A stretch of 64,000 nt of DNA from an uncultured Vicinamibacterales bacterium (GTDB lineage Bacteria; Acidobacteriota; Vicinamibacteria; Vicinamibacterales; JAKQTR01). Where the stretch lies: NCBI GenBank assembly GCA_964358795.1, contig CAYHRK010000001.1, positions 1,432 to 65,431 on the forward strand, written 5' to 3'. Made by a program: the position numbers and the translations under genes. Position 1 is the stretch's first letter; the number at the start of each line of letters is the position of its first letter. Shown in pieces: positions 1-18,339 of this stretch. Below the pieces are notes generated by a model. It saw nothing but the letters and a program-made list of their open reading frames with translations, was not told the DNA's origin and searched no databases.

Positions 1-372
1 CTGCAACGGCAGCGTGAACCCGTCGCGTCCAAACAGCTGCGGCGCCAGTACCGGTGAGGCCGACACGCCGGCCACCAGCACCATGCCGCTCACGGTGATG
101 AGAAAGAAGAAGATCGTGCTGGCCAGCGTCTGTCGGGCCGGTTGGTCCGCGCAGTCGTAGTAGAACCGCATGAACGACGCGTCGATGCCCCAGCGGTACA
201 CCACGCGCAGAATCTGCTCGACGGTGAGCAACAGGGCGATGGCGCCGTAGTCGCTCGGCGAGAGCACGTGGACGTAGAGGGGGAGCAGCAGGAAACTGGC
301 GATCTGGACGGCCACGTCGCCCACGCCGTACACGGTGAGATTGACGGAGAGCTCTTTCAGCTTGTGAAACAC
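1..372 (-). CDS. Wzx-like polysaccharide/O-antigen flippase (MOP superfamily), 5' part only; gene runs off the left edge
   Basis: Own reverse-strand translation from GTG at 372-370 gives VFHKLKELSVNLTVYGVGDVAVQIASFLLLPLYVHVLSPSDYGAIALLLTVEQILRVVYRWGIDASFMRFYYD..., the usual N-terminus of polysaccharide-biosynthesis/flippase proteins. It starts 3 nt after the stop (375-377) of the upstream radical SAM gene. It is absent from the ORF track because there is no stop codon in the window. Confidence 0.6.
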   Translation of the reverse strand, partial: MFHKLKELSVNLTVYGVGDVAVQIASFLLLPLYVHVLSPSDYGAIALLLTVEQILRVVYRWGIDASFMRFYYDCADQPARQTLASTIFFFLITVSGMVLVAGVSASPVLAPQLFGRDGFTLPLQ

Positions 373-374
373 GG

Positions 375-1328
375 TCAGACCAGTTTCGTCACCCACAGCG
401 GTGAGTCTTTGGCCGGCAGGTCGCAGTTCCGGCAGATGTCAGGGCCGCCACTTTCCAGGTGCTCGCGCCGCACGCGACGATACGCGTCGTGATTCCAGAT
501 GTCGCGGATGCTCGACGTGCGCAAGTCCCCCAGCACCACCTTGCCATCGAAATCGGCACAGCAAAGGCTGACCCGGCCGTCCCACAATGCCGTGAACGTC
601 AGCCAGGGCCGATAGCAGGGAAAGTTCACGTCGGCGGTCCGGTCGAGCGCGCCTGCCCAGTTGTGCATTTCCGTGATGTGGATCTTGTCGGCCACGCGCG
701 ACCAGCGATCGATGAACGCCTGCTCTTCGGCCGAGTTGTCCTGCCGGACAAACGACAGGATCAGCTTCGGCCGCACGCGCCCCAGTTCCTGCTTCAGGCG
801 GACCAAGCCTTCCAGATTGGCCATCACCTTGTCGAATTTCAGTCCCAGCCGCGTTGACTCAAACGTTTCGCGGCCAGCCGCGTCTAGACTGATGTTGATG
901 GCGTCCAGTCCGGCCTCGACCACCGCCCGCGCCACATCCGGTCCCAGCAGCGATCCGTTGGTGATGACGCCCACCTCCGGAATACCGCGTGCCTTCGCGT
1001 ACCGGATCTTCTCGGGCAGGCGCTTGTCGAGGAACGCCTCGCCATAGTTGTGCATGCGCAGATGGCGGATGCCGAGTTCCGCGCACTCGTCCACGATTTT
1101 TTGGAACAGCGGCATCTCCATGATGCCCTGCCGGCGCTCCATGTCGTCGCGGGGACAGAAGGTGCACTTGGCGTTGCAGATGTTGGTGGCTTCAATCTGG
1201 ACGATGTCCGGAAGGCCAGGCGCCCGATCGCGCCCGCTGGCGAGCAGCAACCGGCGCACCGGTTTGGCTCCGCGCTTCAGCAGCGATTCGACTATCGGGC
1301 GCACACGCCGTCGAAGGGGCTGAGACAC
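375..1328 (-). CDS. Radical SAM enzyme with C-terminal SPASM/twitch-like Cys-rich domain
   Basis: 317 aa. CxxxCxxC motif in IVQIEATNICNAKCTFCPR. C-terminal Cys cluster CYRPW...LCCADFDG...ICRNCD. GTG start at 1328, 3 nt after the stop of the upstream SDR gene. Confidence 0.85.
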   Translation of the reverse strand: MSQPLRRRVRPIVESLLKRGAKPVRRLLLASGRDRAPGLPDIVQIEATNICNAKCTFCPRDDMERRQGIMEMPLFQKIVDECAELGIRHLRMHNYGEAFLDKRLPEKIRYAKARGIPEVGVITNGSLLGPDVARAVVEAGLDAINISLDAAGRETFESTRLGLKFDKVMANLEGLVRLKQELGRVRPKLILSFVRQDNSAEEQAFIDRWSRVADKIHITEMHNWAGALDRTADVNFPCYRPWLTFTALWDGRVSLCCADFDGKVVLGDLRTSSIRDIWNHDAYRRVRREHLESGGPDICRNCDLPAKDSPLWVTKLV

Positions 1329-1331
1329 GGT

Positions 1332-2303
1332 CTACGGTTTCCTGTGGAATTCGATGACACGCCGGAGAATCTCGTCGAGCGAGATCTGGGGGGCGTACCC
1401 GATCAGGTTGCGGATCTTGCTGATGTCGGGCACGCGCCGCGGCATGTCTTCAAAGCCGCTTTCGTAGGCCTGATCGTACGGAATCGTGACGATGGGCGAC
1501 TCGCTTCCGACCAGTGTTTTCACCCGCGCGGCCAGCTGGCCGATGCTGATCTCTTCCGTGCTGCCGAGATTGAACACGTCTCCAACCGCGGCCGGCTCGG
1601 CCACGATGGCCGCGAGCGCGCCGACCACGTCTCCGACAAACGTGAAGCACCGCGTCTGTGTGCCGTCCCCAAACACGGTGATCGGCTCGCCGTCCAGGGC
1701 CTGTCGCACGAAGTTCGGCACCACCATGCCATACCGGCCGGTCTGCCTCGGACCCACCGTATTGAACAGCCTGACGATGATCACCGGCAGCCGCTTTTCC
1801 TTCCAATACGCCAGGGCCAGGAATTCATCGATCGCCTTGCTGCACGCGTACGCCCACCGGTGTTTCAGCGTGGCCCCCAGCGCAATGTCGCCATCCTCGC
1901 GGAAGGGCACCGCCTCGCTCTTGCCGTACACCTCGGACGTCGATGCGATCACCACGAGCCGGCGCTTCTTGGCCGCCAGCTTCAGCACCACTTCCGTACC
2001 GTGCACGTTGGTCTCGATGGTCCGCACGGGGGATTCCACAATCAGCCGCACACCCACGGCGGCCGCCAGGTGATAGACCACGTCGCACTGATCCACCAGT
2101 TCGGCCACCAGCGGCTCGTTCATCACCGTGTCGATCGTGTAATGAAACCCCGCGCGGCCTTTCAGGTGTGCGATGTTGTCGAACGATCCGGTCGATAGAT
2201 CGTCCAGCACGAACACCTCGTGACCGGCCGCCAGCAGCGTCTCGGACAGGTGAGACCCGATGAAACCGGCACCGCCCGTGATCAATGCACGCATGATCGC
2301 CAC
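1332..2303 (-). CDS. NAD-dependent epimerase/dehydratase (extended SDR; UDP-sugar decarboxylase/epimerase-like)
   Basis: 323 aa. Rossmann motif ITGGAGFIGSHL, STSEVYG, canonical YxxxK (WAYACSKAIDE). Confidence 0.85.
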   Translation of the reverse strand: MAIMRALITGGAGFIGSHLSETLLAAGHEVFVLDDLSTGSFDNIAHLKGRAGFHYTIDTVMNEPLVAELVDQCDVVYHLAAAVGVRLIVESPVRTIETNVHGTEVVLKLAAKKRRLVVIASTSEVYGKSEAVPFREDGDIALGATLKHRWAYACSKAIDEFLALAYWKEKRLPVIIVRLFNTVGPRQTGRYGMVVPNFVRQALDGEPITVFGDGTQTRCFTFVGDVVGALAAIVAEPAAVGDVFNLGSTEEISIGQLAARVKTLVGSESPIVTIPYDQAYESGFEDMPRRVPDISKIRNLIGYAPQISLDEILRRVIEFHRKP

Positions 2304-2313
2304 TCCTTACGAA

Positions 2314-4173
2314 TTAGCATATCGCGTCTGGCGCTGTCCCACCGGCCACGCGCAGCACGTGCGCCGCCGCGCGGGCCGCCGCCTGGCCATCGGACCGGAT
2401 GCCGTACCTGGTCAGAAACGCCACGCGCCCTCGATCGAGCGACTCGCGGCGCTCGCCATCAGCCAGCAGGGCGCGCAACGTCGGAACCAGATCTTCGCCG
2501 TCATGCACACCCGCCATGGCCCCGGCGTCGACAAAGGGACTGAGATTGCTCGGCAGTGCCAGACCGAGCGCTGGCACGCCCATCACCATCGCCTCGATGG
2601 CCGCCGTGGAATTGACCGTCACCAGCAAGCGCGCCGCGCGCGTCAAGGCGGCCAGATCGGCCGATCCCGGCGCCACCGTCACGTTGGCAGCGCCGGCAGC
2701 CATGGCCAGGTAAGGCGCGCCGCTTTCGGCCGGATGGCACTTCACCACCACGTGCACGTCGGGCATCGTTGCCACGGCCTCGACCAGACGTCGGAACACC
2801 GGCCGAATCTGCGTGAACTTTGCGGCGACCAGCACCAGATGCTGGCCCGGTCTGGCGCCGGCGATGTGTCGCACGTGCCCGATGTCGTCGCTGGTGAGGC
2901 GGGAGGCGCGTGCGACCAGCGAATCGAGCCTGGCGCTGCCGGTCACCGCTACGGCTTCAGGCGGGAACCCGCCGGCCGTTCTGAGATGCTCGGCCGCGAA
3001 CTCGTCATACAGCAACGTCACGGTTGGATACGGGAAGCCCCTGTCGGCAGGGTTGCCCGGCGACGGCCGCATCTCGTCAGGCTCGTGGAGGTAGTTCAAC
3101 CAGTGGCGGTAGATGAAGCCGTGCTGCAGACCCACTGACGGGATGGCGCGGCGGCGGGCTTCAAGCACCAGCGCTCGCCCCCATCCTCCGGCTTCGGCGT
3201 AGGTCACGACCGCTGCCGGACGCAGCACATCGAGGCTGGCTCCCAGCTGATCCATGACGTACGCGGACCACGGGAACTGCAAATACGCAATGCCGGCCAG
3301 CACGGGTTCGACCAGCGGCCAGACATCGCACTGCCGAATCACGGCCGCGTTGCGGAGAGGCTGGCTGCCGCACAGCGCCGAGAAGACGGACGCCCGGTGC
3401 CGCCAGATCTCCCGCGAGGGACCCACATCGGCCGGGCCCGCGACGTCGTCGATCGGTTCCAGGCGGGCACCTCCAGCGGCGCGTCCGCCGAATTCCGACA
3501 CGCGCTGGCGCCACGTCCGGGCGCGGTAGCTTGTGCGAGGCCCGAGCCCAACCAGCGCCAACTCGCCGGCCGGGAGCGAGGCGAACAACCGATCCAGAAT
3601 CGGCCCGATGTACTGCTCCTCCTCCTCGCGCCAGAAGGCGGCGTGGACAAAACCCGCTATCCTGACGGTGGCACCGCGCGGGCCGTCTGTCCTTTGTCGC
3701 CGTGCCAGCCAGGCCCCAACGCGGTAGGCGCGCGCGCGTCCGACCAGAACCGCCAGGGTCCACCAGCGCGGACGCCGCCCGAACGCGACACCACCACCCC
3801 ACCGAATCCCCTCCCGCGCGGCCACCTGGCGGGCCACAAGCGTCAACGCAACATCGCCGCGTTCGACGGCCAGCCTGGTGGGATGTTCCCGGCTGACGAG
3901 CGCGTCAAGCGCCAGCAACGTCCGGAAGATCCTGTTGATGACCTGGGTCTTGTGCAGGTAGAGCTCGGCGAACCACCAGAGGGAATCGCCACGCAACGTG
4001 AAGCGGTCCCGCAGCACCTGTCCGTCGATCGGGATGGTCCGCAGTGACTTGATCCAGCGATAGGCGGCACGCTCCGCCTGTTCGGCAAGGTCGGCGGTCA
4101 GGTACTCGTGCAACCCCACGCGGCGCGTGCGTCCACCCGCCTCGACGACGATGGCTTCGTCAGACGTCGCCAT
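2314..4173 (-). CDS. Hypothetical 619-aa protein; C-terminal half resembles the nucleotide-sugar-binding half of GT-B-fold capsule/teichoic-type transferases
   Basis: ATG at 4173 overlaps the stop of the upstream GT9 gene by 14 nt. The C-terminal segment VTGSARLDSL...LVLVAAKF...VVVKCHPAE...LLVTVNSTAAIEAMVMGVPAL has a GT-B-like strand/helix pattern. The N-terminal ~350 aa are not recognised. Confidence 0.4.
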   Translation of the reverse strand: MATSDEAIVVEAGGRTRRVGLHEYLTADLAEQAERAAYRWIKSLRTIPIDGQVLRDRFTLRGDSLWWFAELYLHKTQVINRIFRTLLALDALVSREHPTRLAVERGDVALTLVARQVAAREGIRWGGGVAFGRRPRWWTLAVLVGRARAYRVGAWLARRQRTDGPRGATVRIAGFVHAAFWREEEEQYIGPILDRLFASLPAGELALVGLGPRTSYRARTWRQRVSEFGGRAAGGARLEPIDDVAGPADVGPSREIWRHRASVFSALCGSQPLRNAAVIRQCDVWPLVEPVLAGIAYLQFPWSAYVMDQLGASLDVLRPAAVVTYAEAGGWGRALVLEARRRAIPSVGLQHGFIYRHWLNYLHEPDEMRPSPGNPADRGFPYPTVTLLYDEFAAEHLRTAGGFPPEAVAVTGSARLDSLVARASRLTSDDIGHVRHIAGARPGQHLVLVAAKFTQIRPVFRRLVEAVATMPDVHVVVKCHPAESGAPYLAMAAGAANVTVAPGSADLAALTRAARLLVTVNSTAAIEAMVMGVPALGLALPSNLSPFVDAGAMAGVHDGEDLVPTLRALLADGERRESLDRGRVAFLTRYGIRSDGQAAARAAAHVLRVAGGTAPDAIC

Positions 4174-5380: not shown

Positions 5381-5394
5381 GCCGATGTCAGAGC

Positions 5395-7920
5395 CTATTC
5401 GAGACGCACCCGGTCGAGCATCACGCCCAGTGCGCGATCGTCTGAGCCTCCGAACACCACGCTTGGCGTCCACGTGGTGCAGATCAGGCGAATCACCGAC
5501 ACATCCGGCAGTCGCGAAGCCTCGGCGGCGACCTCTGGCGGCACCGCGACCTGGTAGGCGTGAAAGCCTCCTCCGACCACGACCTCGCCGAGCAGGTGAT
5601 CGTTGAACATCACGCGAACCCTGGCGGGGCCGGCCGCTTCGGGTCGTCCCCCGTTGCTCATCCACAGGCGCACCACGCGCGCACTCGCGCCGACGCCCTG
5701 CAGCGTCACGTACGACACATCCCGCGTCCAACGGTAGTTCACCCCGTCGGTTTCTTCTTTGGCGTTGATGCGGTACACCCACAGATCGTCGAACGCGCCG
5801 ACATCGAGATCCGTGACGACCGGGGCGCGTGGTGCCACCGACAAGCGGTACAAGTTCAGGCCAAACTTCTTCTGGCGCACGCTCCGAGGATAGGCGTTGC
5901 GCAGCGACTCGTACTCGGCGATCTGAAAGCGCTGATGGGTGAGGGGTGTGGCCATCAGCGTGGCGGATGCCAGGTCCGTGCCGCCATCCGCCACAAACAG
6001 GACGCGCGTGTAGGTGTGCGTGGCCCACGTCATGAACTGCGCAAAGGTGGCGCGGTTCGGCTTTGGCGTCGACAGCAGCAGCACGTGCTTCGCGTAGATA
6101 TACGCGAGCGGGGTGGCCAGCACGTGTACGTCTGACGAGTTGCGAGGTTCGACAACCAGCAGGTCGCGCTCGCCGATGCGACTGGCCAGCTGCTCGAGTT
6201 GGGGAATCAGGCCGGCGTACTCCACGTGGTGCAGAATGGGCCGTGTCGCGACGGCGAATGACCATCCCGTGGCACCCAGAAGCACCACCGGGAGCACGAT
6301 GCGCCACGCGCCCGCCAGCAGTCGCGCGCCAAGCCCGGCACCGTGCGTGCTGGCGCGAAGACCCGGCAGGAACCCGGAGAGCGCCACCGATGCCATGAAG
6401 AGGCATGTCATCGGCAGCACGAGTGGGATGTAGCGCCGCGCCTGCCAGAAATGCTCGGGCACGATCCGGATCTTGTAGAACAAGAACACCGAGGCCAGGG
6501 CGGTGACCGTCAGCAGAATCGGCGCGCGCCAGAAGTGGCGCCACGACAGCAGGCCAAACCCCACGACGGCGGACGCCAGACCCACACCTCCCACATACCA
6601 GGCGAACACCGGCAGTGCAAAGGCGTCGTGAGCCGCCAGTTTTCCCACCGGTTCCCGCAGAAAGCCGGCATACACGGCGCAGAGCGCGATCGCGGCGGCC
6701 ATCACGCGCGGAATCCACGATTGCGCCCGCTGCACGATCGCGGGACGGCGCGATCGGATGTGGCGTACCACGAACAGCGCGACAACGACGGCGGCAGCAC
6801 CTCCACAGAGCATTCGCCAGCCGCCCAGCTGGAGGAGCGGAATCGCGACGTACATCTTCATCGGTCCCGCGTAGTACGCGGCCGCGATGATGGCCTGCGC
6901 CGCCAGCGGAAGCCAGAATGTCCACCGCACCCGCTTGCCGTCGGCGGTCACCAGCAGGAGGCCCGCCGACACATACGCCAGCACGAGCACGGCGTCGAAC
7001 CGCACAAACAGCAGGGCGCCGAGCAGCAGTCCGGCCACAGGCTCGAAAAACGGATCCTCGTCTTGGTAGGCTCGCCCGAGCGCCAGCAGGGCCACGAAGA
7101 GCAGCGCCTGCTGCATCACCTCCGAATTCGGATAGCGCGCGTACCAGACTTCAGCGACGTTGATGGCCAGCAGCACGCACCCGGCGGCCGCAGGCAGACG
7201 TCCGACGAGCCTCGCACCGGCGAAGTAGAAAGCGACCAGTCCCAGCAGTGCCCAAAAGCCAACCGCGCGCCGAGCTCCAGACAATCCGTCCACACCGTAC
7301 CCAATGGCGATCCAGGCCGGAAACGCGTGTGGAAACTGGCCGATCACCTCGCCGCGGGCACGGTTTGTGACGAAGAACCCCATGAACCGCACGCCTTCGT
7401 ACAACCCTTCGGTGAACCAGTCGAATCCCTCCGTCAGGTACAAACCGCGGAACTGGTTCGGCAGCGCGGCCAGGGTGTCATCGGCAATGCGCAGCGATCC
7501 ACGTTGCGCGATCTGGATCCCTTCGTTCATGTACGTGCCGGGATCCTTGCCGCCCATCACGTACTCGGACGAGGGGAAAAACAGTGACATCCCAAGACCC
7601 ACCAGCGCCACCGGCACAAGCGCCGTCCACTGCGGTTTCGGTGCCGGCGTGCCGAGTCGAAGGTTCCCGCGACCAGCGAGCAGCAGCAGCGCACTGATGC
7701 CAGCGTCGGCTGCGAGTAGTCGTCCGAAGGTATAGGCCCCAGCTGAGGCGAGCCCGAGGGTGACCAGCGTGGTGATGGTCACGCTCAGCACCACGGCCCA
7801 GAACACGCGTTCGTCGGCCGGCAGGGCGGCGCGGCGCAGGCGATTGGCCGTGGGCAGCCGGAAGGCGAGTGCACCCGGCAGGTACGCCACCACCATCAAC
7901 TGAGCAAGTGCCAGGAGCAT
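5395..7920 (-). CDS. Large polytopic membrane protein, probable GT-C-fold glycosyltransferase (ArnT/PMT-like) with ~230-aa C-terminal soluble domain
   Basis: 841 aa with many hydrophobic segments. The first loop, SSEYVMGGKDPGTYMNEGIQIAQRGSL, resembles the acidic loop-1 motif of GT-C enzymes. Sits between the DegT and GT9 genes. Confidence 0.55.
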   Translation of the reverse strand: MLLALAQLMVVAYLPGALAFRLPTANRLRRAALPADERVFWAVVLSVTITTLVTLGLASAGAYTFGRLLAADAGISALLLLAGRGNLRLGTPAPKPQWTALVPVALVGLGMSLFFPSSEYVMGGKDPGTYMNEGIQIAQRGSLRIADDTLAALPNQFRGLYLTEGFDWFTEGLYEGVRFMGFFVTNRARGEVIGQFPHAFPAWIAIGYGVDGLSGARRAVGFWALLGLVAFYFAGARLVGRLPAAAGCVLLAINVAEVWYARYPNSEVMQQALLFVALLALGRAYQDEDPFFEPVAGLLLGALLFVRFDAVLVLAYVSAGLLLVTADGKRVRWTFWLPLAAQAIIAAAYYAGPMKMYVAIPLLQLGGWRMLCGGAAAVVVALFVVRHIRSRRPAIVQRAQSWIPRVMAAAIALCAVYAGFLREPVGKLAAHDAFALPVFAWYVGGVGLASAVVGFGLLSWRHFWRAPILLTVTALASVFLFYKIRIVPEHFWQARRYIPLVLPMTCLFMASVALSGFLPGLRASTHGAGLGARLLAGAWRIVLPVVLLGATGWSFAVATRPILHHVEYAGLIPQLEQLASRIGERDLLVVEPRNSSDVHVLATPLAYIYAKHVLLLSTPKPNRATFAQFMTWATHTYTRVLFVADGGTDLASATLMATPLTHQRFQIAEYESLRNAYPRSVRQKKFGLNLYRLSVAPRAPVVTDLDVGAFDDLWVYRINAKEETDGVNYRWTRDVSYVTLQGVGASARVVRLWMSNGGRPEAAGPARVRVMFNDHLLGEVVVGGGFHAYQVAVPPEVAAEASRLPDVSVIRLICTTWTPSVVFGGSDDRALGVMLDRVRLE

Positions 7921-7923
7921 GGA

Positions 7924-10037: not shown

Positions 10038-10795
10038 CGTGACGCCCCGGACCCGTCGGTGCCGCCGGACGCTGCGCGTTGGCGCGACACGACAAGCGCC
10101 CACCAGAGTTTCAGCACGTCCACCCCAGTCCTGGCGATGCGGCCAAAATTGAAGAACTGCGACCTCCCGTACGCCCGGTGGTAGTGGTGCACCGGGGCTT
10201 CGACAATCCGGAAGCCGGCATCCTGAATCTTCTTCATCATCTCCAGGCAAATCACGCCGCTGCTTTTCTCGAGGCGCACCCGGTCGAAGATCGCGCGTCG
10301 CATCAACCGGAAGTCGCAATCGACGTCGCGCACCTTCAGGCCGAACAGCAGTTTCACCGTCCAGTGATAGAACCGGCCGATGAAGATCCGGTGCAGGGGA
10401 TCCGATCGGCTGATCTTGTAGCCATTCACCACGTCGACGCCCGGGACGAGTCGAGCCCACAGGACGGCCATTTCCGACGGATCGTACTGCGCATCGCCAT
10501 CGGTATAGAACACGAACTCCTTGGTCGCGTTCGCAAATCCGCTGCGCAGCGCACTGCCGTACCCACGATTGCCCTGATGGTGGACGACACGCACGAGCGG
10601 ATAGACCCGGGCCAGCTCGTTGGCAATCTGTGGCGTGGCGTCGCGGCTGCCGTCGTTGATGATCAGCACCTCGTAGTCCGGCGTCAGGCGTCCTGCCGCC
10701 AGCACGGCGCTGATCACCATGCTGGCGATGGTGCCGCTGTCGTTGTACGCCGGGAAGAACACCGTCAACCCGGGTGTGATCTGGGGCCCAGACAT
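10034..10795 (-). CDS. GT2 glycosyltransferase, Dpm1/ArnC-like (polyprenyl-phosphate sugar synthase type)
   Basis: 253 aa. Motifs VFFPAYNDSGTI, IINDGSRD, YTDGDAQYD (DxD). Confidence 0.8.
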   Translation of the reverse strand: MSGPQITPGLTVFFPAYNDSGTIASMVISAVLAAGRLTPDYEVLIINDGSRDATPQIANELARVYPLVRVVHHQGNRGYGSALRSGFANATKEFVFYTDGDAQYDPSEMAVLWARLVPGVDVVNGYKISRSDPLHRIFIGRFYHWTVKLLFGLKVRDVDCDFRLMRRAIFDRVRLEKSSGVICLEMMKKIQDAGFRIVEAPVHHYHRAYGRSQFFNFGRIARTGVDVLKLWWALVVSRQRAASGGTDGSGASR

Positions 10796-10804
10796 GTCGA
10801 GATC

Positions 10805-12061
10805 CTATACCGTCCCACGGCGTTCGCGCGCGCGACAGGACGCCCAATCGTACACCTGTTCGAACCGCTCGGCCACGCGATCCCATGTGTGCAGGCGCAG
10901 AGATTGCTCGCGCGCCCTGGCTGCCAGACCCATGCGGAAGTCCGGGTCGGCCAGCAGCCGATCGATCGCCGCTTCGAGCGCCCCGGCATCCTTCTCGGGT
11001 ACCAGCAGCCCGGTGCGCTCGTGCGTGACCACCGACGGGATGCCGCCCGCCGTGGTCGCCACAAGCGGCGTGCCCGACGCCAGCGCTTCCATGACGGTAT
11101 TGGGCAGACCATCCACGTTGCCAGCCTCGTCGTGCACCGAGGGCATCACCGCCACGTCGGCGGCGGCCAGCCAGGCCGCCACGTCGCGCTGGGGCAACAC
11201 GCCGGTAAACTGAACCCGGCCTGCGATGCCCGCCTCGCGCGCGCGCCGCCGGAGCTCACCGTCCAGGTCGCCGCCGCCAGCAATCACCAGCCGCAGGCCC
11301 GGCCAGCGCGGAGCCAGGCCGGCCACGGCGTCAATCAGATACTCGAATCCCTTCTTGCGCACGAACCGGCCCGCCGTAAACAGCACCAGATCGCCGGGCC
11401 CGGCGGCCATCGCCGACCGGCCTGCCGCCCGACGCGTCGGGTCGGGCCTGAACTGGTCCACATCCACACCATACGCAATGGTCTCGATCCGTTTCGGGTC
11501 GGCGCCAAGCGCGATGACCCGATCGCGCAGGTCGTCGCTGCAGGCGGTCACCCAGTCAACGCGGCGCAGCGCTGCTTGAGCCGCCCTGCGCACAAGCCCG
11601 TGGCGCTCGGCGACGTAGACATCCGATCCGTGCAGGCTGATGACGGTCGGCAGTCGCCGCCCGACGGCGGTGGCAATGACGCCGCTGGGGATGAGCCAAT
11701 GCCCGTGAATCACGGTGGCGCGCACCTGGCGGACGACGCGCCGCGCCGCCTGGAAGGAGGCCAGCAGCGCCAGTGGCGCGGCGAGATAGGCGGACAAGCG
11801 CAAATGCACATCTTCGCGCAGGGCCTCGGCATAGCCAAACGTGTTCAGACGGGGATGTGGCGCGTACGTGAAGGGATGGAAATAGACGCCGTGCTCGACT
11901 GGCCCCCTCGACAGACGCGGATGCCACGGCAGCACCACGTGCACCTGGTGGCCGCGGGCGGCGATGCCCTTGGCGATCGGCTCCATGAAGGTGCCGATCG
12001 TGTCCCCGTCGAAGCGGGGATACGACGTGGTGATCATGACGGCCACGTGGTCTGCGCTCAC
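10805..12061 (-). CDS. GT4 glycosyltransferase
   Basis: Start is either GTG at 12061 (GTGA overlap with the upstream stop at 12058-12060) or ATG at 12037 (MITTSYPRF). Motifs SLHGSDV, FTAGRFVRKKG, GLPNTVMEALASGTPLVATTAGGIP (EX7E region). Confidence 0.85.
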   Translation of the reverse strand: MSADHVAVMITTSYPRFDGDTIGTFMEPIAKGIAARGHQVHVVLPWHPRLSRGPVEHGVYFHPFTYAPHPRLNTFGYAEALREDVHLRLSAYLAAPLALLASFQAARRVVRQVRATVIHGHWLIPSGVIATAVGRRLPTVISLHGSDVYVAERHGLVRRAAQAALRRVDWVTACSDDLRDRVIALGADPKRIETIAYGVDVDQFRPDPTRRAAGRSAMAAGPGDLVLFTAGRFVRKKGFEYLIDAVAGLAPRWPGLRLVIAGGGDLDGELRRRAREAGIAGRVQFTGVLPQRDVAAWLAAADVAVMPSVHDEAGNVDGLPNTVMEALASGTPLVATTAGGIPSVVTHERTGLLVPEKDAGALEAAIDRLLADPDFRMGLAARAREQSLRLHTWDRVAERFEQVYDWASCRARERRGTV

Positions 12062-12795
12062 CGGGTTCCAGCTCCCGAGCCGGTTCGCAGCCGGCCGCGG
12101 TGGCGCAACAGGAGACGCCAGGGCATGACCATCGACTCGAGCAGCACGCGTCCCGACATCTTCGATGCGCCCTGCCGGCGCTCGACATAGATGATCGGCA
12201 CTTCGGTGATGCGGCAGCCCAGGCGCGCCGCCTCGAACAGGGTTTCCACCATGAAGGCGTAGCGCTGCGACAGGATGCGATCGAGCGGAAGTCTGGCCAG
12301 CGCCTCTCGCCGCCAGCACCGGAATCCGCTGGTGGTATCTCGGGGGGACAGGCCGGTGACGGCCCGTACGTAGCCGTTGGCAAACGTGCTCAGCACGATG
12401 CGTTGCAGCGGCCAGTTCACCACGCTGATGCCGTTGAGGTACCGGGATCCCAGCACCAGATCGTAGTCCCGTGTCGCTTCGATCAGATCGGGCAGGTAGC
12501 GTGGATCGTGCGAGAAGTCGGCGTCCATCTGGCAGATGAGCTCAGCGCCGCTTTGCAGAGCCCACCCGAACCCATCCACGTACGACAAGCCGAGACCGCG
12601 CGGGCCTGTGCGGTGCAGCACGTCAAGCCGTCCCGGGTGGGCGCGCGCCAGTTCATCGGCGATCGCGCCGGTGCCGTCGGGCGACTGGTCATCCACCACC
12701 AGGATCCGGAACGGGTGCGCGTCGAGAATCTGGCGCGCGAGCACCGGCAGGTTCTCGCACTCGTTGTAGGTCGGGATGATGACGAGGACACGCAT
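12058..12795 (-). CDS. GT2 polyprenol/dolichol-phosphate mannose synthase-like (Ppm1/Dpm1 family)
   Basis: 245 aa from ATG at 12795 (MRVLVIIPTYNECENL). Motifs VVDDQSPDGT, QMDADFSHDP. The 359-aa track ORF is a 5' extension into the upstream gene. Confidence 0.85.
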   Translation of the reverse strand: MRVLVIIPTYNECENLPVLARQILDAHPFRILVVDDQSPDGTGAIADELARAHPGRLDVLHRTGPRGLGLSYVDGFGWALQSGAELICQMDADFSHDPRYLPDLIEATRDYDLVLGSRYLNGISVVNWPLQRIVLSTFANGYVRAVTGLSPRDTTSGFRCWRREALARLPLDRILSQRYAFMVETLFEAARLGCRITEVPIIYVERRQGASKMSGRVLLESMVMPWRLLLRHRGRLRTGSGAGTR

Positions 12796-12803
12796 GCCAG
12801 AGG

Positions 12804-14102
12804 TCACGGCCGCAGCGCCCGCAAGGATGCCGCCATCACCAGGAGCGCCGGATCGACCACCGGGATTCGAAATCGCTCCTGCGGAAGAAACACCACCGAC
12901 GCCAGCACCGATCCGGCCGCCAGCAGCAGCAGCGACATCGGCACGCGTCTGGTGCGCACCAGCCGCGCGAATCCGGCCAGGGCAAACGGCAGGACGCCCA
13001 GATACGATGCGACCGAGCTCCACAAGTACAACGGTGAGTGTAACCGGTACGACGGCCCGATCGGCACAATCGTGTAGAACAGCTTCCGCACCAGCAGCCA
13101 TGCCCACCAGACCGGGTGATCGCGGATAAACCGCCATGCTTCCCGGTAGTAGATCGATTCCAGTTGTTCTGGACTCAGCCCCGGATGGCGCGCTCGCAGT
13201 TCGAGGTTGGCGCGCTTCAGGTCCGGGTTGGCCGCCAGGTCGCCTTCGCCGATGGCCATCGCGTGGTTACCCGTCCAGAACGTGATGCCACCCTCCGACG
13301 CGATGGGCACAAATCTGCCGGCGGTCCGCGTGTTGTAGACGCTCCACGGCGCGACCGCCAGCACGGCAGCGATGGCGAACACGGCAGCCGGGCGAACGCC
13401 GCGGGTCCACCAGACCCACGGCCCGGCCAGCACCAGAAAAAACAGCATGGCCGGCCGCGTCAGAACGGCCAGCCCTGCCAGGATGCCGGAGGCCGCGTAC
13501 AGCCAGACAGATCCGCGGTCCGGCACCCGTCCGCGATCGCCCTCGGCCGGCGTCACGATCCGATGGGCTGCCATGTTCAGCACGGCCGCACAGCCAAGCG
13601 CGACCACGGCGTAGAGGGTTTCGCTGAAGACGTATGCGGGTGTCCAGACCAGCGGCGGGTAGAGGGCCGCTAGCCAGGCCGCCGTCGCGGCGGCCCGGGA
13701 GCCGGCAGCCCGCCCGGCCATCCACCCGACCAGCCATACAAGCAGGCCGCCCAGTGCCGCCTGGCTCGTCCTGATGGCGCGTAGTACCGCCGGTCGAGCC
13801 ACATCTCCCTCGAGAGGACCAGCCGCCGCGTCGATGCCTGCCGCCTGCGACACCCGTATGACGCCGGCAAGAAACAGGGGATAGAACGGCGCCCGACCGA
13901 AATGCTCTCCTGGCGCCTGCGACCCATCAGGCAGGAGGTACACGAATCCCCTCCCGCTGGCCACATTCCGCGCAAGCAGGAGGTACTCGCGTTCGTCGTG
14001 AGTGAGCGGCTTGTCCACCCAGTAACCCAAGCCGAACACGAGGCGCGCGATCACACCGATGGCCACGGCGAGCCACACGACGCGGGGCACTGGTCGATCC
14101 AC
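12804..14102 (-). CDS. GT-C membrane glycosyltransferase (PMT_2/ArnT-like, GT39/GT83 type)
   Basis: ~432 aa from GTG at 14102, 6 nt after the upstream stop (alternative GTG at 14090). N-terminal TM helix followed by PLTHDEREYLLLARNVASGRGF, the DE..Y...A loop motif of ArnT/PMT-type enzymes. Many TM segments. Confidence 0.7.
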   Translation of the reverse strand: MDRPVPRVVWLAVAIGVIARLVFGLGYWVDKPLTHDEREYLLLARNVASGRGFVYLLPDGSQAPGEHFGRAPFYPLFLAGVIRVSQAAGIDAAAGPLEGDVARPAVLRAIRTSQAALGGLLVWLVGWMAGRAAGSRAAATAAWLAALYPPLVWTPAYVFSETLYAVVALGCAAVLNMAAHRIVTPAEGDRGRVPDRGSVWLYAASGILAGLAVLTRPAMLFFLVLAGPWVWWTRGVRPAAVFAIAAVLAVAPWSVYNTRTAGRFVPIASEGGITFWTGNHAMAIGEGDLAANPDLKRANLELRARHPGLSPEQLESIYYREAWRFIRDHPVWWAWLLVRKLFYTIVPIGPSYRLHSPLYLWSSVASYLGVLPFALAGFARLVRTRRVPMSLLLLAAGSVLASVVFLPQERFRIPVVDPALLVMAASLRALRP

Positions 14103-14107
14103 GATGC

Positions 14108-15007
14108 CTACTCGTGTCGCTCGAACCGCAGAGCGGCGATCTGTTCCGAGACCAAGCCAACCAGGAAGACGATGACCGCCAGCATGATCAACAGCACCGA
14201 CGAATTGGTGACGTGGGACTGTGTGGCAATCGTCCACGCCGCGTAGGCGGAGCCGGCCATGAAGGCGGCGAGGCTGATCGGGAAGAAGATCCGCAGCGGA
14301 CTGAACAGCGTGACGATCTTGAAGGCGATCAGCAGGAACTTCAGCCCGTCGCGCACGAACTTGATCTTCGACTTGCCGACCCGCGTGTCGGCTTCGATCG
14401 GCTCGAAGTGGACGTTGTACCCCGCCTTGATGAATGCCAGCGTCGTGGTGGTCGGCGTCGAAAAGCCGTTCGGCAGCAGGTGTAGGAACTCGCGCAGACA
14501 CGTGCGCCGCGCGCCGCGGAAGCCCGAAGTCAGGTCGGGTACGTGCCGCCCGGTCAGGTAGCTGGCCAGCCAGTTCAAGGCGCTGTTGCCCAGCAACCGC
14601 GCCTGTGTGGCCTGGGTGCCCAGCGAACGCGCGCCAATGACCAGATCGTACTCGCCGAGAAACGACACTAGGCGGGCTGCGTCGCCCGCGCGGTGCTGGC
14701 CATCACCGTCGATGATCAGCACATACTCGCCGGTCGCGTGGCGAATGCCCGTTTTCACCGACGCACCGTTCCCCTTGTTGTACGGATGGCGTACGACGGT
14801 AGCCCCCGCGGCCCCCGCGCGCGCGGCGGTCTGGTCGGCCGACCCGTCGTCCACCACCAGAATCTCGTGCCACGGCCCCGCGCCGCCCAGCGCCTCGACC
14901 AGCGGACCGATGGCCGCCTCCTCGTTGTAGGCCGGAATCACGATTGAGGTCGCTGCCCGTTCGGCCACCTCGCTAGCTCCGGTCCTGCGCAGCGGAGGCG
15001 CCGCCAT
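14108..15007 (-). CDS. Membrane-anchored GT2 (GtrB/ArnC-type polyprenyl-phosphate glycosyltransferase)
   Basis: Motifs IVIPAYNEEAAI, VVDDGSADQT, IIDGDGQH, and two C-terminal TM helices. Start is uncertain: TTG at 15016 (track), ATG at 15007 or GTG at 14968. The first two overlap the upstream gene (stop at 14973). Confidence 0.8.
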   Translation of the reverse strand: MAAPPLRRTGASEVAERAATSIVIPAYNEEAAIGPLVEALGGAGPWHEILVVDDGSADQTAARAGAAGATVVRHPYNKGNGASVKTGIRHATGEYVLIIDGDGQHRAGDAARLVSFLGEYDLVIGARSLGTQATQARLLGNSALNWLASYLTGRHVPDLTSGFRGARRTCLREFLHLLPNGFSTPTTTTLAFIKAGYNVHFEPIEADTRVGKSKIKFVRDGLKFLLIAFKIVTLFSPLRIFFPISLAAFMAGSAYAAWTIATQSHVTNSSVLLIMLAVIVFLVGLVSEQIAALRFERHE

Positions 15008-15983
15008 CGCCGGCAACAGACGGCCCGCCCTCGGGCGACGCTTGCCGCAATTCCATCAGCCGCACGCGGTACAGCAGTTCCTCGAGGAGTTTGCGGTTGC
15101 CGGAGATCACGTCGGCCAGCAAGCCGATCAGGCCGATCTGGAACCCGACAATCATGAGCACCGCCGACAGGATCAACGACTGCACGTGCCCGAGTCCTTC
15201 TCCAGCCAGGTAGAAGTACACGAAGCGCGCCGACACGGTCAGGCCCCCCAGGAACACGACGAGGCCGATCGAGCCGAACACCTTCAAGGGCTCGTACATG
15301 GCGTAGACGCGGACGATGGTCGCGGCAGACGCCTTGATGTAGGTACGCACGTTGGCAAACAGGCGCGACTGGCGCGTGCGGTGGTTGGTGCTGACGGGCA
15401 CGTGCGCAATGGCCATGCGCTTCTTGCCCGCCTGGATAATCGACTCGAGCGTGTAGGAAAACTCCGACACGATCGTCATGCGCAGCGCCGCCTCGCGCGT
15501 GTACGCCCGAAACCCGCTGGTCGTGTCGGGCACCTGGGTGTCCGACACCTGGCGCACGACCCAGCTGCCGAGCCACTGCAACCGTTTCCGCATCGGCGAC
15601 ATGTAGCTGAGATCCTGGATGTTGCGATCGCCGATCACGATGTCGGCCTCGCCCTTCACCAGCGGTGCGATCAGCGCGGCGATGTCGGCGCCCACGTACT
15701 GGTTGTCGCCATCCGTGTTGACGATGATGTCGGCGCCCAGTTTCAGCGAGGCGTCGATGCCCGCCGCAAACGCCGACGCCAGGCCGCGGCGCCGGGAAAA
15801 CCGGACCACGTGCGCCACGCCGTGCCGGCGCGCCACCTGGGCGGTGCCATCGGTCGACCCGTCGTCGACGATCAGGATCTCGACAGCGTCGACGCCGGGG
15901 ACCGACCGTGGCAGATCGCGCAGCGTCGCAGGAAGCGTCTCGGCCTCGTTCAGACACGGGATCTGGATAATCAGCTTCTTCAC
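14973..15983 (-). CDS. Membrane-anchored GT2 (GtrB/ArnC-type polyprenyl-phosphate glycosyltransferase), paralogue of the adjacent gene
   Basis: 336 aa. Motifs IQIPCLNEAETL, IVDDGSTDGT, NTDGDNQY, and a C-terminal TM pair. GTG start in a GTGA overlap with the upstream GT4 stop (15980-15983). Confidence 0.85.
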   Translation of the reverse strand: MKKLIIQIPCLNEAETLPATLRDLPRSVPGVDAVEILIVDDGSTDGTAQVARRHGVAHVVRFSRRRGLASAFAAGIDASLKLGADIIVNTDGDNQYVGADIAALIAPLVKGEADIVIGDRNIQDLSYMSPMRKRLQWLGSWVVRQVSDTQVPDTTSGFRAYTREAALRMTIVSEFSYTLESIIQAGKKRMAIAHVPVSTNHRTRQSRLFANVRTYIKASAATIVRVYAMYEPLKVFGSIGLVVFLGGLTVSARFVYFYLAGEGLGHVQSLILSAVLMIVGFQIGLIGLLADVISGNRKLLEELLYRVRLMELRQASPEGGPSVAGDGGASAAQDRS

Positions 15984-17023
15984 GATCCCACCAGTCTCTC
16001 GACCACGCCGTCCCAGGTGACCAGCCGCGCCCGCTCGTAGCCGGCGGCACCCATGGCGGCCGCCCCAGCCCGATTCCCGGCAAGCCGAGTGAACGCGTCA
16101 GCCAGGGCCGCCGGTACGGGCTCGCAGACCAAACCGTTGACCCCGTGCTGCACGAACTCGAGCGTGCCGCCCGAATCGGCGGCCGTCACGACGGGCTTGT
16201 GAGCCAGAAACGACTCGAGCGTCACGTAGCCGTAGTCCTCGTCGTAGGGCGCATACACCACGCCGAGCGCCCCCGCATAGAGATCGACGAGTGGTTCGTC
16301 TTCGACCGCCCCGGCAAAACGGACGCGGTCGCCGACCCCCAATTCGGCGGCCAGGCGTTGCAGGCGCCCGCGCTCGGTGCCTTCTCCGGCCACAATGAGC
16401 CGCAGGGAACCGGGAACCAGGGCGAGCGCCTGGATCGCCAGGTCGACGCGCTTCACCGTTTCCAGCCGGCCCACCGACAAGAGATAGTCTCCCGCCGGAC
16501 CGGGCACGATCCGATCGGCGAGTCTAGGCGGATGATACAGCGGTTCGGCGCGCAGGCCGTTGAACTTCGCGAGCCGGTTCGCCGTATTGCCGGCGTTGGT
16601 GAACAAGCGGCGGCACTCGCCGAGCATGGCGGTATCAAGCGCGATCAGCTTCTGCCGCAGGCCCACGTCCAGATCGGTGTGCGCGAAGTCGCTGTAGGGC
16701 GTGCCGCACAGCTCGTAGGCCGCACGGTACTGGTGGATCAGCCACGCCACTTTGTTCGGGTGCCGCGCGAAGTACGACGGAAACTTGGTGGCAATCACGA
16801 GATCGATCGGCGTGCCGTTGCTTTCACCGAGATCCAGCAGCCGCCAGGCCGCCGCGTGCGCGAGGATTTCGTCTTTTGGGTACCACTTGAACGGCACCGA
16901 CACGAGGTCCACGAGATACCCGTGCCCGCGCAGCCGATCCACCAGTTGGCGGACATGGCTCTCGGCGCCGCCCCTGACAAGCGGCACCTGCGCCTCGCAG
17001 ACGAGGATGGTGCGGATGGCCAT
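15980..17023 (-). CDS. GT4 glycosyltransferase (first gene of the glycan block)
   Basis: 347 aa. Motifs RGGAESHV, LIVAGEG, YGYVTLESFLAHKPVVTAADSGGTLEFV (EX7E region). Confidence 0.85.
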   Translation of the reverse strand: MAIRTILVCEAQVPLVRGGAESHVRQLVDRLRGHGYLVDLVSVPFKWYPKDEILAHAAAWRLLDLGESNGTPIDLVIATKFPSYFARHPNKVAWLIHQYRAAYELCGTPYSDFAHTDLDVGLRQKLIALDTAMLGECRRLFTNAGNTANRLAKFNGLRAEPLYHPPRLADRIVPGPAGDYLLSVGRLETVKRVDLAIQALALVPGSLRLIVAGEGTERGRLQRLAAELGVGDRVRFAGAVEDEPLVDLYAGALGVVYAPYDEDYGYVTLESFLAHKPVVTAADSGGTLEFVQHGVNGLVCEPVPAALADAFTRLAGNRAGAAAMGAAGYERARLVTWDGVVERLVGS

Positions 17024-18335: not shown

Positions 18336-18339
18336 CCGG

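Follow-up and report, generated by a model that had tools for sequence, protein, structure and literature searches.

Which envelope glycan might be made by a dense, one-strand run of glycosyltransferase and sugar-tailoring genes, and on which lipid is it likely to be built? The run occupies the left end of the 64,000-nt stretch of DNA analyzed here (the window), which comes from an uncultured Vicinamibacterales bacterium. The organism is known solely from metagenome assemblies. An earlier description of the first 17 kb, the sequence-only reading, had proposed a 15-gene operon with two GT-C enzymes.

Packing and extent of the gene cluster

As shown in Table 1, minus-strand genes follow one another without a break from position 1 to 18144. 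GC3 frame analysis and ORF maps put the coding fraction of this interval at about 100% and supported no plus-strand gene in it, in agreement with the single orientation described earlier. Adjacent genes within it either overlap or lie no more than 19 nt apart. The four 4-nt ATGA/GTGA overlaps of the sequence-only reading were found at 9015-9018, 10034-10037, 12058-12061 and 15980-15983, as was the 14-nt overlap of D and E at 4160-4173. A fifth overlap, GTGA at 12804-12807, requires K to begin at GTG 12807; on contig L003, which is 99.9% identical to the window and was the source of alternative gene calls and of the left-hand continuation, K is called from ATG 12795. The longer overlap claimed at 14973-15007/15016 also depends on the start: it stands with the longer form of M but is replaced by a 4-nt gap with GTG 14968, which is preceded by GGAG and was used in the L003 gene call (286 aa). 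The other gaps, given earlier as 3-17 nt, measured 2-17 nt, or 19 nt if C begins at its likely start, ATG 2294, which has AAGGAG upstream.

Positions 1 and 17023 do not mark the ends of the unit, which runs past both and contains more than the proposed 15 genes and two GT-Cs. Upstream of O, at a distance of 17 nt, is ychF, and in 28 of 38 related loci it is directly upstream on the same strand with a gap of -4 to 195 nt; it probably opens the transcription unit and does not encode a glycan enzyme. On the other side, to which the sequence-only reading had pointed, L003 extends left of position 1 and supplies the full 509-aa Wzx (Polysacc_synt_3, 6e-15) and, just left of the window, a third GT-C that matches PMT_2, PMT and STT3 above Pfam cutoffs. 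The operon promoter probably lies in the ychF-mraZ intergenic region because this is the sole non-coding stretch longer than 20 nt. A sigma-70-like site at 18307-18335 is directed toward mraZ (18360-18815, plus strand), and no minus-strand promoter-like site was found across 1-18500. Terminator-like sites inside the unit were below chance (5 compared to 9.6 expected). We infer a single transcript.

Table 1. Features of the cluster and the evidence for each assignment
Gene	Assignment	Coordinates	Strand	Evidence
A	Wzx/MOP-type flippase, N-terminal 124 aa, cut by window edge	1..372	-	Pfam Polysacc_synt 4e-7
B	Radical SAM/SPASM enzyme, BtrN-like	375..1328	-	Pfam Radical_SAM 9e-18, SPASM 2e-15
C	Extended SDR, nucleotide-sugar dehydratase/decarboxylase-like	1332..2303	-	Pfam Epimerase, GDP_Man_Dehyd
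D	619-aa DUF6716 putative glycosyltransferase	2314..4173	-	Homologue Pfam matches, profile search
E	GT9 (heptosyltransferase-family) glycosyltransferase, 406 aa	4160..5380	-	Pfam Glyco_transf_9 1.3e-32
F	841-aa GT-C, C-terminal beta-sandwich (CBM-like) domain	5395..7920	-	AF2 fold, orthologue PMT_2
G	DegT/DnrJ/EryC1 sugar aminotransferase	7924..9018	-	Pfam 4e-109
H	Extended SDR, NDP-hexose 4,6-dehydratase-like	9015..10037	-	Pfam Epimerase 5e-49
I	Soluble GT2, ArnC-like polyprenyl-phosphate sugar synthase candidate	10034..10795	-	Pfam GT2 7e-25
J	GT4 glycosyltransferase	10805..12061	-	Pfam Glycos_transf_1, Glyco_transf_4
K	Soluble GT2, Dpm1/DPMS-like	12058..12807	-	P. furiosus Dol-P-Man synthase 5mlz match
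L	432-aa GT-C (PMT_2/GT39-GT83-like)	12804..14102	-	AF2 fold, orthologue PMT_2
M	GT2, two C-terminal TM helices; start may be GTG 14968	14108..15007	-	Pfam GT2 8e-25
N	GT2, two C-terminal TM helices	14973..15983	-	Pfam GT2 2e-21
O	GT4 glycosyltransferase	15980..17023	-	Pfam Glycos_transf_1 1e-28
P	YchF GTPase/ATPase	17041..18144	-	Pfam YchF-GTPase_C 7e-32
	ychF-mraZ divergent intergenic region	18145..18359	.	Sole non-coding stretch >20 nt

Enzyme classes encoded by the cluster

The proposal that four GT2 proteins are of the polyprenyl-phosphate-sugar synthase type held up. The closest solved structure was ArnC for I (9hwj, 1.8e-19, residues 10-225), M (7e-15) and N (9bhc, 4.9e-12, residues 2-294), and P. 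furiosus Dol-P-Man synthase for K (3.3e-30, residues 4-233), which carries MDAD and TTSGFR stretches. The best NCBIfam matches of the four were ArnC, AglJ, PpgS and Dol-P-hexose transferase. M and N matched the AglJ model over the full length at 132 and 131 bits, respectively, far below its cutoff of 325 bits. The predicted C-terminal hairpins correspond to two hydrophobic helices each in M (224-242 and 269-287) and N (233-251 and 270-288), while I has no hydrophobic helix. The four proteins are mutually divergent, with pairwise identities of 27-30%.

The sequence-only reading had also called F and L GT-C enzymes and had made the call depend on GT-C models, which the window copies failed to match: F gave no Pfam, NCBIfam or PDB sequence match and L no Pfam or NCBIfam match. 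Predicted folds and orthologues nevertheless support the class. In Foldseek searches with the AF2 models (pLDDT 90.8 for F and 85.6 for L), the top 26 PDB matches of F and the top 35 of L were all GT-C. Among orthologues, PMT_2 was matched by 23 of 45 for F and by 43 of 67 for L, some of the latter being annotated as ArnT-like or GT39; 7 of 10 distant relatives of F matched it as well. Each protein has one conserved Asp motif in a loop after a TM helix, the invariant G123-G-K-D126-P-G-x-Y130 in F and the near-invariant H35-D36-E37-x-E39-Y40, just after the first helix, in L. The WWDxG motif is absent from both. Residues ~650-841 of F matched CBM35, CBM51 and BcsB by Foldseek.

Pfam bore out each of the remaining classes (GT9, two GT4s, Wzx-like flippase, radical SAM/SPASM enzyme, two SDRs and DegT aminotransferase). 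The top solved structure for B was BtrN (4m7t, 3e-15). NCBIfam matches were all below cutoff for C (LegB, 181 bits; UDP-xylose synthase, 158; ArnA C-terminus, 126), G (PseC, 208; ArnB, 196; DesI, 181) and H (dTDP-glucose 4,6-dehydratase at the top, 149), and E scored 90-92 bits with the heptosyltransferase I/II/III models, whose cutoffs are 134-185 bits. The 619-aa protein D, previously unrecognized, is now placed in DUF6716, although the window copy itself gave weak Pfam matches at most. Among 50 homologues, 47 matched DUF6716, 31 Epimerase_2 and 9 Capsule_synth; the profile matched UDP-GlcNAc 2-epimerase (3dzc) at 1.3e-4, and NCBIfam matches (TIGR04396, TIGR04326 and BFO_1060) were below cutoff. 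Judged from these matches, the C-terminal half of D is probably GT-B-like and resembles the UDP-GlcNAc 2-epimerase superfamily.

Conservation and modularity

Comparison with related genomes, as had been suggested, showed collinear gene order across about 50 species-level genomes of Vicinamibacterales, at protein identities of 42-84%. J and F were found in all 52 related loci and E in 50, adjoining F in each of these. K and L co-occur in 43 loci. I-H-G is missing from 12 and D-C-B, whose members co-occur, from 7; Wzx was found in 25 and the third GT-C in 13. A minimal variant, O-N-M-J-F-E, exists, and IS elements lie within the cluster in locus L002. The cluster is thus modular, with a constant core of GT4, 841-aa GT-C and GT9, one paired GT-C and GT2, an optional module of GT2, SDR and aminotransferase, and a DUF6716-SDR-radical-SAM module. 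After the cluster, close relatives encode a Flg_new_2 repeat protein of at least 1594 or of 1757 aa, and in locus L084 another PMT_2 GT-C also follows. A 52%-identical homologue of D lies directly upstream of Wzx in an unrelated glycan cluster.

Related systems and proposed function

The locus is a large but recognizable example of a known strategy. The GtrA/GtrB/GtrC systems of Shigella and Salmonella and ORF15/ORF14/ORF12 (GT136) of C. youngae likewise combine a polyprenyl-phosphate sugar synthase with a GT-C on the periplasmic face. In C. youngae, the acceptor glycan is bound by a CBM at the C-terminal end of the GT-C (PMC11127046), and by fold match F carries a similar domain at that end. 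In contrast to these systems, the operon has no small GtrA/SMR-type flippase gene and its synthases are GT2 rather than PRPP-dependent; where three-component systems have one set, four synthases and three GT-Cs share one unit, embedded among cytoplasmic GT4, GT9 and sugar-tailoring genes. I-H-G-F follows the same logic as the Arn pathway (ArnB-C-A-D-T-E-F), which places L-Ara4N on lipid A (PMC4402001): an SDR-derived 4-keto sugar, DegT amination, ArnC-like loading and GT-C transfer. ArnC is the best PDB match of I, M and N, and ArnB the second-best NCBIfam match of G. Unlike in Arn, no formyltransferase domain, ArnD deformylase or ArnE/F was found here by Pfam, H is closer to the 4,6-dehydratase than to ArnA (149 vs 47 bits), and no score comes near an equivalog cutoff. 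Rhizobium RgtA/RgtB and Francisella FlmK, ArnT-like GT-Cs that work in the periplasm and modify LPS in its Kdo/lipid A region (PMC4402001), offer a parallel to the GT-Cs of the present locus, whose acceptor is putative.

Ppm1/Pmt of Actinobacteria and eukaryotic DPM1/PMT are resembled by K, the GT2 closest to Dol-P-Man synthase, and by L, which is translationally coupled to K, PMT_2-type and has H-D-E-x-E-Y in its first loop. However, L has just 432 aa, and neither the window copy nor the orthologues were reported to carry a MIR domain; any action of L on a protein acceptor is putative. In the Rgt system (RgtA/RgtB with RgtC/D/E), which galacturonosylates LPS core and lipid A, several GT-Cs use a polyprenyl-phosphate donor from one synthase, whereas four distinct synthases occur here. 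Mycobacterial EmbA/B/C and AftD, large GT-Cs with C-terminal carbohydrate-binding modules, are among the fold matches of F, but sequence similarity to F was not detected, TM-scores were 0.25-0.32, and phylum and cell envelope differ.

On balance we lean slightly toward assembly of the LPS-core type, after which polyprenyl-phosphate sugars would serve for periplasmic decoration, at an envelope-glycoconjugate locus typical of the class Vicinamibacteria, a group of soil Acidobacteria (phylum Acidobacteriota). Transcription would start from the ychF-mraZ intergenic region. In the cytoplasm, SDRs C and H, aminotransferase G and the BtrN-like B would provide unusual nucleotide-sugar donors, and the Leloir-type enzymes E, J and O together with D would extend a lipid-anchored acceptor, for which the LPS inner core (lipid A-Kdo) is the most likely candidate. 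I, K, M and N would each put a different sugar on polyprenyl phosphate and, after flipping, F, L and the third GT-C would pass these as single sugars to the glycan on the periplasmic face. Adjacency and co-occurrence suggest that K works with L and I-H-G with F; it counts against the scheme that four synthases cannot be paired one to one with three GT-Cs. LPS is favored because the GT9 is near-invariant beside F and the conserved core set has no dedicated flippase, Wzx being found in just 25 of 52 loci, which fits an acceptor flipped by MsbA. ArnC/ArnT, FlmK and RgtA/B acting on Kdo2-lipid A are established precedents (PMC4402001), and there is also precedent for GT-Cs whose CBM domains bind the acceptor glycan (PMC11127046). 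Counting against this reading, none of lpx, waaA, waaL, msbA and lpt was among the ORFs scanned in the window, the operon has no GtrA/ArnEF-type flippase for polyprenyl-phosphate sugars, no protein reached a curated equivalog cutoff, and the heptosyltransferase scores of E are low. The Wzx also counts against it, since a Wzx flippase normally implies an Und-PP-linked oligosaccharide.

Such an oligosaccharide, a unit of O-antigen, EPS/capsule or a general protein O-glycan, is a rather unlikely alternative. A PGT encoded elsewhere would start the unit, the GT4, GT9 and DUF6716 enzymes would extend it, Wzx would flip it, and the GT-Cs would decorate it or attach it to protein. Besides Wzx itself, the D homologue next to another Wzx, the Dol-P-Man synthase-like K, the PMT_2 type (to which protein O-mannosyltransferases belong) of L and the third GT-C, and the Flg_new_2 protein and further PMT_2 GT-C after the cluster all fit this course. 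Yet the window ORFs that were scanned yielded no PGT, Wzy, Wzz, ligase or OTase. They yielded no ABC exporter either, and the sequence-only reading had already noted the lack of an initiating PGT, Wzy, Wzz and ABC exporter. Wzx and the third GT-C are also far less frequent than the near-universal J, F and E, and we know of no GT9 enzyme that acts on Und-PP-linked intermediates. The gap left by the missing PGT would be filled if an AglJ-like M or N put the first hexose on polyprenyl phosphate, as in haloarchaeal N-glycosylation, with extension by the GT4, GT9 and DUF6716 enzymes, flipping by Wzx and en bloc transfer by F. AglJ starts a dolichol phosphate-linked glycan that AglB transfers later (PMC3871713), AglJ is the best curated NCBIfam match of M and N, and three oligosaccharyltransferases, STT3, AglB and PglB, are among the top fold matches of F. 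This course is nonetheless very improbable given the sub-cutoff AglJ scores, the missing WWDxG motif and the low TM-scores of F with these transferases (0.3-0.4), with which ArnT ranks equally. To our knowledge, no such monophosphate-primed pathway has been described in bacteria.

Compared with LPS-core assembly and decoration, it is improbable, though a shade less so than monophosphate priming, that separate glycan modules and ychF are merely packed together, with different products and possibly separate internal promoters. Independent loss of I-H-G and D-C-B, the minimal variant and the IS elements would fit such an arrangement, as would ychF, for which we know of no role in glycan synthesis. 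Against it, internal promoter-like sites were not found and terminator-like sites were not above chance, stop and start codons often overlap, the genes leave essentially no intergenic space, and order and orientation are kept across the whole range of protein identities.

Layout and extent of the locus

Maps of codon-position GC and ORFs showed that genes on the minus strand follow one another without interruption up to position 18144, starting at the left edge of the window (G+C ~66%), with ~100% of this stretch coding. The genes are lettered A to P from the left edge, and P, encoding YchF, is first in the order of transcription.

Genes of the locus within the window, listed in transcription order; family assignments for A to P are from Pfam
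Gene	Coordinates	Strand	Product	Source
P	17041-18144	-	YchF	Pfam
O	15980-17023	-	GT4	Pfam
N	14973-15983	-	GT2	Pfam
M	14108-15007	-	GT2	Pfam
L	12804-14102	-	432-aa membrane protein	
K	12058-12807	-	GT2	Pfam
J	10805-12061	-	GT4	Pfam
I	10034-10795	-	GT2	Pfam
H	9015-10037	-	SDR	Pfam
G	7924-9018	-	DegT aminotransferase	Pfam
F	5395-7920	-	841-aa membrane protein	
E	4160-5380	-	GT9	Pfam
D	2314-4173	-	619-aa protein	
C	1332-2303	-	SDR	Pfam
B	375-1328	-	radical SAM/SPASM	Pfam
A	1-372	-	Wzx N-terminus	Pfam

The four 4-nt overlaps and the 14-nt overlap described in the sequence-only reading were all found in the sequence, and a fifth 4-nt overlap (12804-12807) is present provided that the GT2 gene K starts at GTG 12807. 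The remaining intergenic gaps are 2-19 nt. The longer overlap that had been placed at 14973-15007 is uncertain, since GTG 14968 is an equally good start for the GT2 gene M and was chosen in the gene call of a near-identical contig. A consensus scan for promoters and terminators, which is weak in an Acidobacterium and was used solely as absence of contrary evidence, found no sigma-70-like sites on the minus strand of 1-18500. Five terminator-like hairpins were observed compared to 9.6 expected by chance, and every one lies within a gene. By this weak test there is no sign of boundaries inside the unit.

The extent originally proposed, 15 genes with two GT-C enzymes, proved too small at both ends. 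The end of ychF is separated from the first GT4 gene (O) by 17 nt, and a YchF gene lies immediately upstream on the same strand (gap -4 to 195 nt) in 28 of the 38 related loci that have enough upstream sequence. The sequence left of coordinate 1 was viewed by way of a groundwater contig from ENA (L003), which is 99.9% identical to window positions 1-17920 and extends 2 kb further left. An exact-sequence look-up with F found no match, and L003 was reached through the cluster representative of F (P0001). It carries a complete 509-aa Wzx followed by a gene that overlaps the Wzx stop by 11 nt and whose first 289 residues match PMT_2, PMT and STT3 above Pfam cutoffs. This gene (Z) encodes a third GT-C. 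Extended in this way at both ends, the unit comprises at least 18 genes, three GT-C enzymes among them. The sequence-only reading had seen no initiating phosphoglycosyltransferase (PGT), Wzy or Wzz in the window. A scan of ORFs across the 64 kb likewise turned up Wzx as the sole component of this kind, and the 2 kb past the left edge gave none of the other three.

The sole sizeable non-coding stretch (18145-18359) lies between ychF and the divergent dcw cluster, which begins with mraZ at 18360 and continues with rsmH, ftsL, ftsI, murE, murF, murD, ftsW, murC, ftsQ, ftsA and ftsZ. A minus-strand ORF at 18126-18737 was not accepted as a gene, since the GC content by codon position agrees with mraZ on the plus strand (18360-18815). 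The murE-murC stretch (22149-29343, plus strand) has no space for mraY or murG, whose usual places in a dcw cluster are between murF and murD and between ftsW and murC, respectively, and both must be encoded elsewhere. The FtsI-type penicillin-binding protein (20179-22209, plus strand) carries a C-terminal PASTA domain (8.6e-9), a domain that is commoner among Gram-positive bacteria than in diderms such as this Acidobacterium. Just past ftsZ is a gene for a 596-aa B12-binding radical SAM protein (Radical_SAM_N2; 33159-34949, plus strand).

Glycosyltransferases and sugar-tailoring enzymes

The four GT2s match Pfam Glycos_transf_2 at 77-88 bits, and DxD-type stretches (TDGD, MDAD, IDGD and TDGD in I, K, M and N, respectively) were read from their sequences. 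The best match to a solved structure was ArnC for I (1.8e-19, residues 10-225), M (7e-15) and N (4.9e-12, residues 2-294), and Pyrococcus dolichyl-phosphate mannose synthase (DPMS) for K (3.3e-30, residues 4-233), which upholds their earlier placement with the polyprenyl-phosphate sugar synthases. Consistent with this, the top NCBIfam models were ArnC, AglJ, PpgS and dolichyl-phosphate hexose transferase, and the nearest characterised relatives belong to the Dpm1/ArnC/GtrB/AglJ clade, with alignments extending beyond the catalytic core. No curated equivalog cutoff was reached by any of the four (best score 132 bits vs 325 for AglJ; 43-70 bits vs 529 for ArnC). Two C-terminal hydrophobic helices are present in each of M and N and none in I or K; the clade includes TM-less members, such as those of the PpgS (226 aa) and Dol-P-hexose transferase (213 aa) models. 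Judged by sequence, all four GT2s belong to this clade, with a predicted activity of loading sugars from nucleotide-sugar donors onto polyprenyl phosphate. Their pairwise identity of 27-30% indicates that they are old paralogues, and they may use different donors.

The 841-aa (F) and 432-aa (L) membrane proteins had been expected to match GT-C models. Taken literally this failed, as neither matched a Pfam or NCBIfam model at E <= 0.01, but the result is overridden by evidence from the fold. Because sequence and profile searches of the PDB also gave no meaningful match, the assignment is based on AlphaFold2 models (mean pLDDT 90.8 for F, built on 72 homologues, and 85.6 for L, built on 67) and Foldseek. 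The best 26 PDB matches of the F model were all GT-C (STT3, ArnT, AglB, PglB, EmbA/B, AftD, ALG12, DPY19), as were the best 35 of the L model, including AglB, STT3, ArnT, PglB, ALG9, Pmt4, PimE and EmbB. These models predict that F and L are polytopic proteins of the GT-C fold. PMT_2 was matched by 43 of 67 L orthologues, by 23 of 45 F orthologues and by 7 of 10 distant full-length F relatives. When the profiles of F and L were compared (hhalign), the probability was 4.6%, so the two are not close paralogues. At E <= 1e-30, the F family comprises 1290 cluster representatives (clustering at 50% identity).

In F, an invariant motif (G-G-K-D126-P-G-x-Y) follows the helix at 98-114, and in L the motif H35-D36-E37-x-E39-Y40, of which H35-D36-E37 is kept in at least 90% of sequences, follows the first helix (7-27). 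The catalytic acidic residues of GT-C enzymes have the same placement. The positive-inside rule, on which the location depends, would put both motifs in the first extracytoplasmic (periplasmic) loop. Residues ~650-841 of F form a beta-sandwich with Foldseek matches to CBM35, CBM51 and BcsB. Identity as an oligosaccharyltransferase was rejected for both proteins: STT3, PglB and AglB carry WWDxG in the C-terminal periplasmic domain, whereas this motif is absent from F and L.

The GT9 (E) has the Glyco_transf_9 domain of LPS heptosyltransferases (Pfam 113.5 bits vs a cutoff of 22), yet its scores against the heptosyltransferase I, II and III equivalogs (90-92 bits) are below the cutoffs of 134-185. 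The 619-aa protein D, previously listed as unrecognised, can now be assigned, as DUF6716, annotated in the database as a putative glycosyltransferase, was found in 47 of 50 homologues; Epimerase_2 was found in 31, Capsule_synth in 9 and Glyphos_transf in 5. The D profile matches UDP-GlcNAc 2-epimerase (1.3e-4, residues ~400-590), suggesting that the C-terminal half probably has a GT-B-like fold, an assignment that covers all but the N-terminal ~300 residues.

The nearest relative of the radical SAM protein B is the dehydrogenase BtrN (3e-15). The SDR C resembles LegB, UDP-xylose synthase and the ArnA C-terminus, the SDR H resembles dTDP-glucose 4,6-dehydratase, and the aminotransferase G resembles PseC, ArnB and DesI. 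Since all of these scores are under the cutoffs, they do not allow the sugars to be named. The LegB-, PseC- and BFO_1060-type matches raised the possibility of a nonulosonic-acid (Leg/Pse) pathway, which was set aside, as the scores were all less than half of the cutoffs; the locus has no NeuB-type synthase or CMP-transferase, which also counts against it.

Conservation and modularity

Vicinamibacteria are abundant Acidobacteria of soil and groundwater that are rarely cultured. The homologues carry annotations of Vicinamibacterales or Acidobacteriota. When each GTDB species was scanned by way of one genome, relatives of F turned up in 233 stretches, and the 80 of these loci that were listed are nearly all from Vicinamibacterales, Vicinamibacteria or Acidobacteriota MAGs. 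The synteny comparison with related genomes proposed in the sequence-only reading was made by searching those 80 loci with the proteins of the window (tblastn); the counts cover the 52 loci that are 20 kb or longer. Most of these are collinear in the order P-O-N-M-L-K-J-I-H-G-F-E-D-C-B-A-Z, at 42-84% identity.

Every one of the 52 loci has the GT4 J and the GT-C F, and 50 have E. In 43 loci L is accompanied by K, and 5 have neither; the I-H-G block is optional, with G and H both missing from 12; and D, C and B travel together. Several MAGs have a minimal form, O-N-M-J-F-E(-I). Wzx was found in 25 of the 52 loci and the third GT-C in 13, both counts possibly limited by the 10-kb flank. A reading in which independent modules are merely juxtaposed could accommodate the optional blocks; given the collinear order, we consider it unlikely.

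In two relatives of ~60% identity (L001, 17760-22526; L084, 14062-21851), the gene next after the radical SAM gene encodes, in place of Wzx, a Flg_new_2 repeat protein (1594+ aa in L001, 1757 aa in L084), which could be a target of glycosylation. Beyond it, L084 has a HEAT-repeat protein and then another PMT_2 GT-C. In locus L085 (10001-19303), a 52%-identical D homologue is directly upstream of Wzx in a different glycan cluster that also has GT8, GT4 and methyltransferase genes. In L002 (5902-6876 and 14121-19768), IS elements (DDE_Tnp_IS1595, DDE_5/DDE_Tnp_1) lie both within the cluster and next to it, H appears split and the D-C-B module appears lost.

Among the ~50 related loci, most have the dcw cluster as the neighbour, as judged from the adjacency of ychF in 28 of 38, and this position suggests that its product is probably a core surface structure of Vicinamibacteria. 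No paper was found on this locus, on the glycans of Vicinamibacteria or on DUF6716.

Proposed function and acceptor

Building on the enzyme families, predicted folds, tight packing, conserved order and modularity established here, we propose that sugar-tailoring enzymes in the cytoplasm would make donors, and that the GT9, GT4 and DUF6716 enzymes would lengthen a lipid-anchored acceptor. The four Dpm1/ArnC-type synthases would make four polyprenyl-phosphate sugars, to be transferred at the periplasmic face by the three GT-C enzymes. The CBM-like domain of F may hold the glycan acceptor, a role with precedents in the GT136 enzyme of C. youngae and in EmbC/AftD (PMC11127046). Adjacency and co-occurrence suggest two pairings, of K with L and of I-H-G with F. 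The second of these, I-H-G-F, would then proceed in an Arn-like manner, from dehydratase and aminotransferase to loading on lipid phosphate and transfer by the GT-C.

The acceptor we favour is the LPS inner core or lipid A, because the GT9 is near-invariant beside F, because the conserved core is without its own flippase, which fits MsbA-dependent export, and because ArnT, FlmK and RgtA/B are precedents that make periplasmic additions to Kdo2-lipid A (PMC4402001). Against this acceptor, no lpx, waa or msbA genes were found among the scanned ORFs of the window, Wzx is present, E scores under the heptosyltransferase cutoffs and no GtrA/ArnEF-type flippase is encoded. The Wzx supports a rival in which the product is an Und-PP-linked O-antigen, EPS or protein O-glycan unit initiated by a PGT encoded elsewhere. 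The PMT_2 type of the GT-Cs, the adjacency of D and Wzx in L085 and the giant Flg_new_2 surface protein beside the cluster in relatives point the same way. Wzx/Wzy-dependent assembly would be expected to have a PGT, Wzy and Wzz alongside Wzx, whereas the locus shows Wzx alone, and we regard this rival as possible but doubtful. A PGT would be dispensable if an AglJ-like GT2 (M or N) primed polyprenyl monophosphate, the GT4, GT9 and DUF6716 enzymes built an oligosaccharide on it and F transferred this en bloc to an envelope acceptor. Such a pathway has an archaeal precedent (PMC3871713) and, if true, would be a bacterial counterpart of haloarchaeal N-glycosylation; F lacks the WWDxG motif of AglB, and we consider the pathway very improbable.

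In its proposed mode of action, the locus resembles the known three-component, Arn, Rgt and Ppm1/Pmt systems. It belongs to none of them, because the Arn-specific enzymes and small flippases are missing and no equivalog cutoff was reached by any of the proteins. Three-component periplasmic glycosylation systems encode a dedicated small flippase (GtrA or SMR/ArnEF) with the synthase and GT-C; there is none in the locus, where 1-18144 has no free coding space. Membership in the Arn (L-Ara4N) pathway was rejected, as the ArnA formyltransferase domain, the ArnD deformylase and ArnE/F are all missing; in searches with Pfam and NCBIfam, none of the genes yielded a domain of the formyltransferase, polysaccharide deacetylase or SMR type.

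The locus is a large, class-wide example of known glycosylation strategies, and since its biology follows known principles, it is of use for annotation and as a guide to experiments and not for any new concept. The near-invariant GT4/GT-C/GT9 core, four predicted lipid-linked donors and three predicted periplasmic transferases make up a concrete parts list for the surface structure proposed for the class. The analysis also gives a fold and a probable role to DUF6716 and to the CBM-bearing 841-aa GT-C family, which has no dedicated Pfam or NCBIfam model; both are mostly "hypothetical" in databases.

Elsewhere in the window, a 784-aa processive-synthase-type GT2 (Glyco_tranf_2_3, Glyco_trans_2_3; 43646-46000, plus strand), with a ~330-aa N-terminus without annotation, is unrelated to the operon. 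The stretch 61508-63814 (minus strand) encodes a 444-aa protein with a DUF92 membrane domain and a weak match to CTP_transf_1, followed by an SDR. The CTP_transf_1 family includes dolichol and phytol kinases, and the DUF92 protein could be a polyprenol kinase and a source of polyprenyl phosphate.
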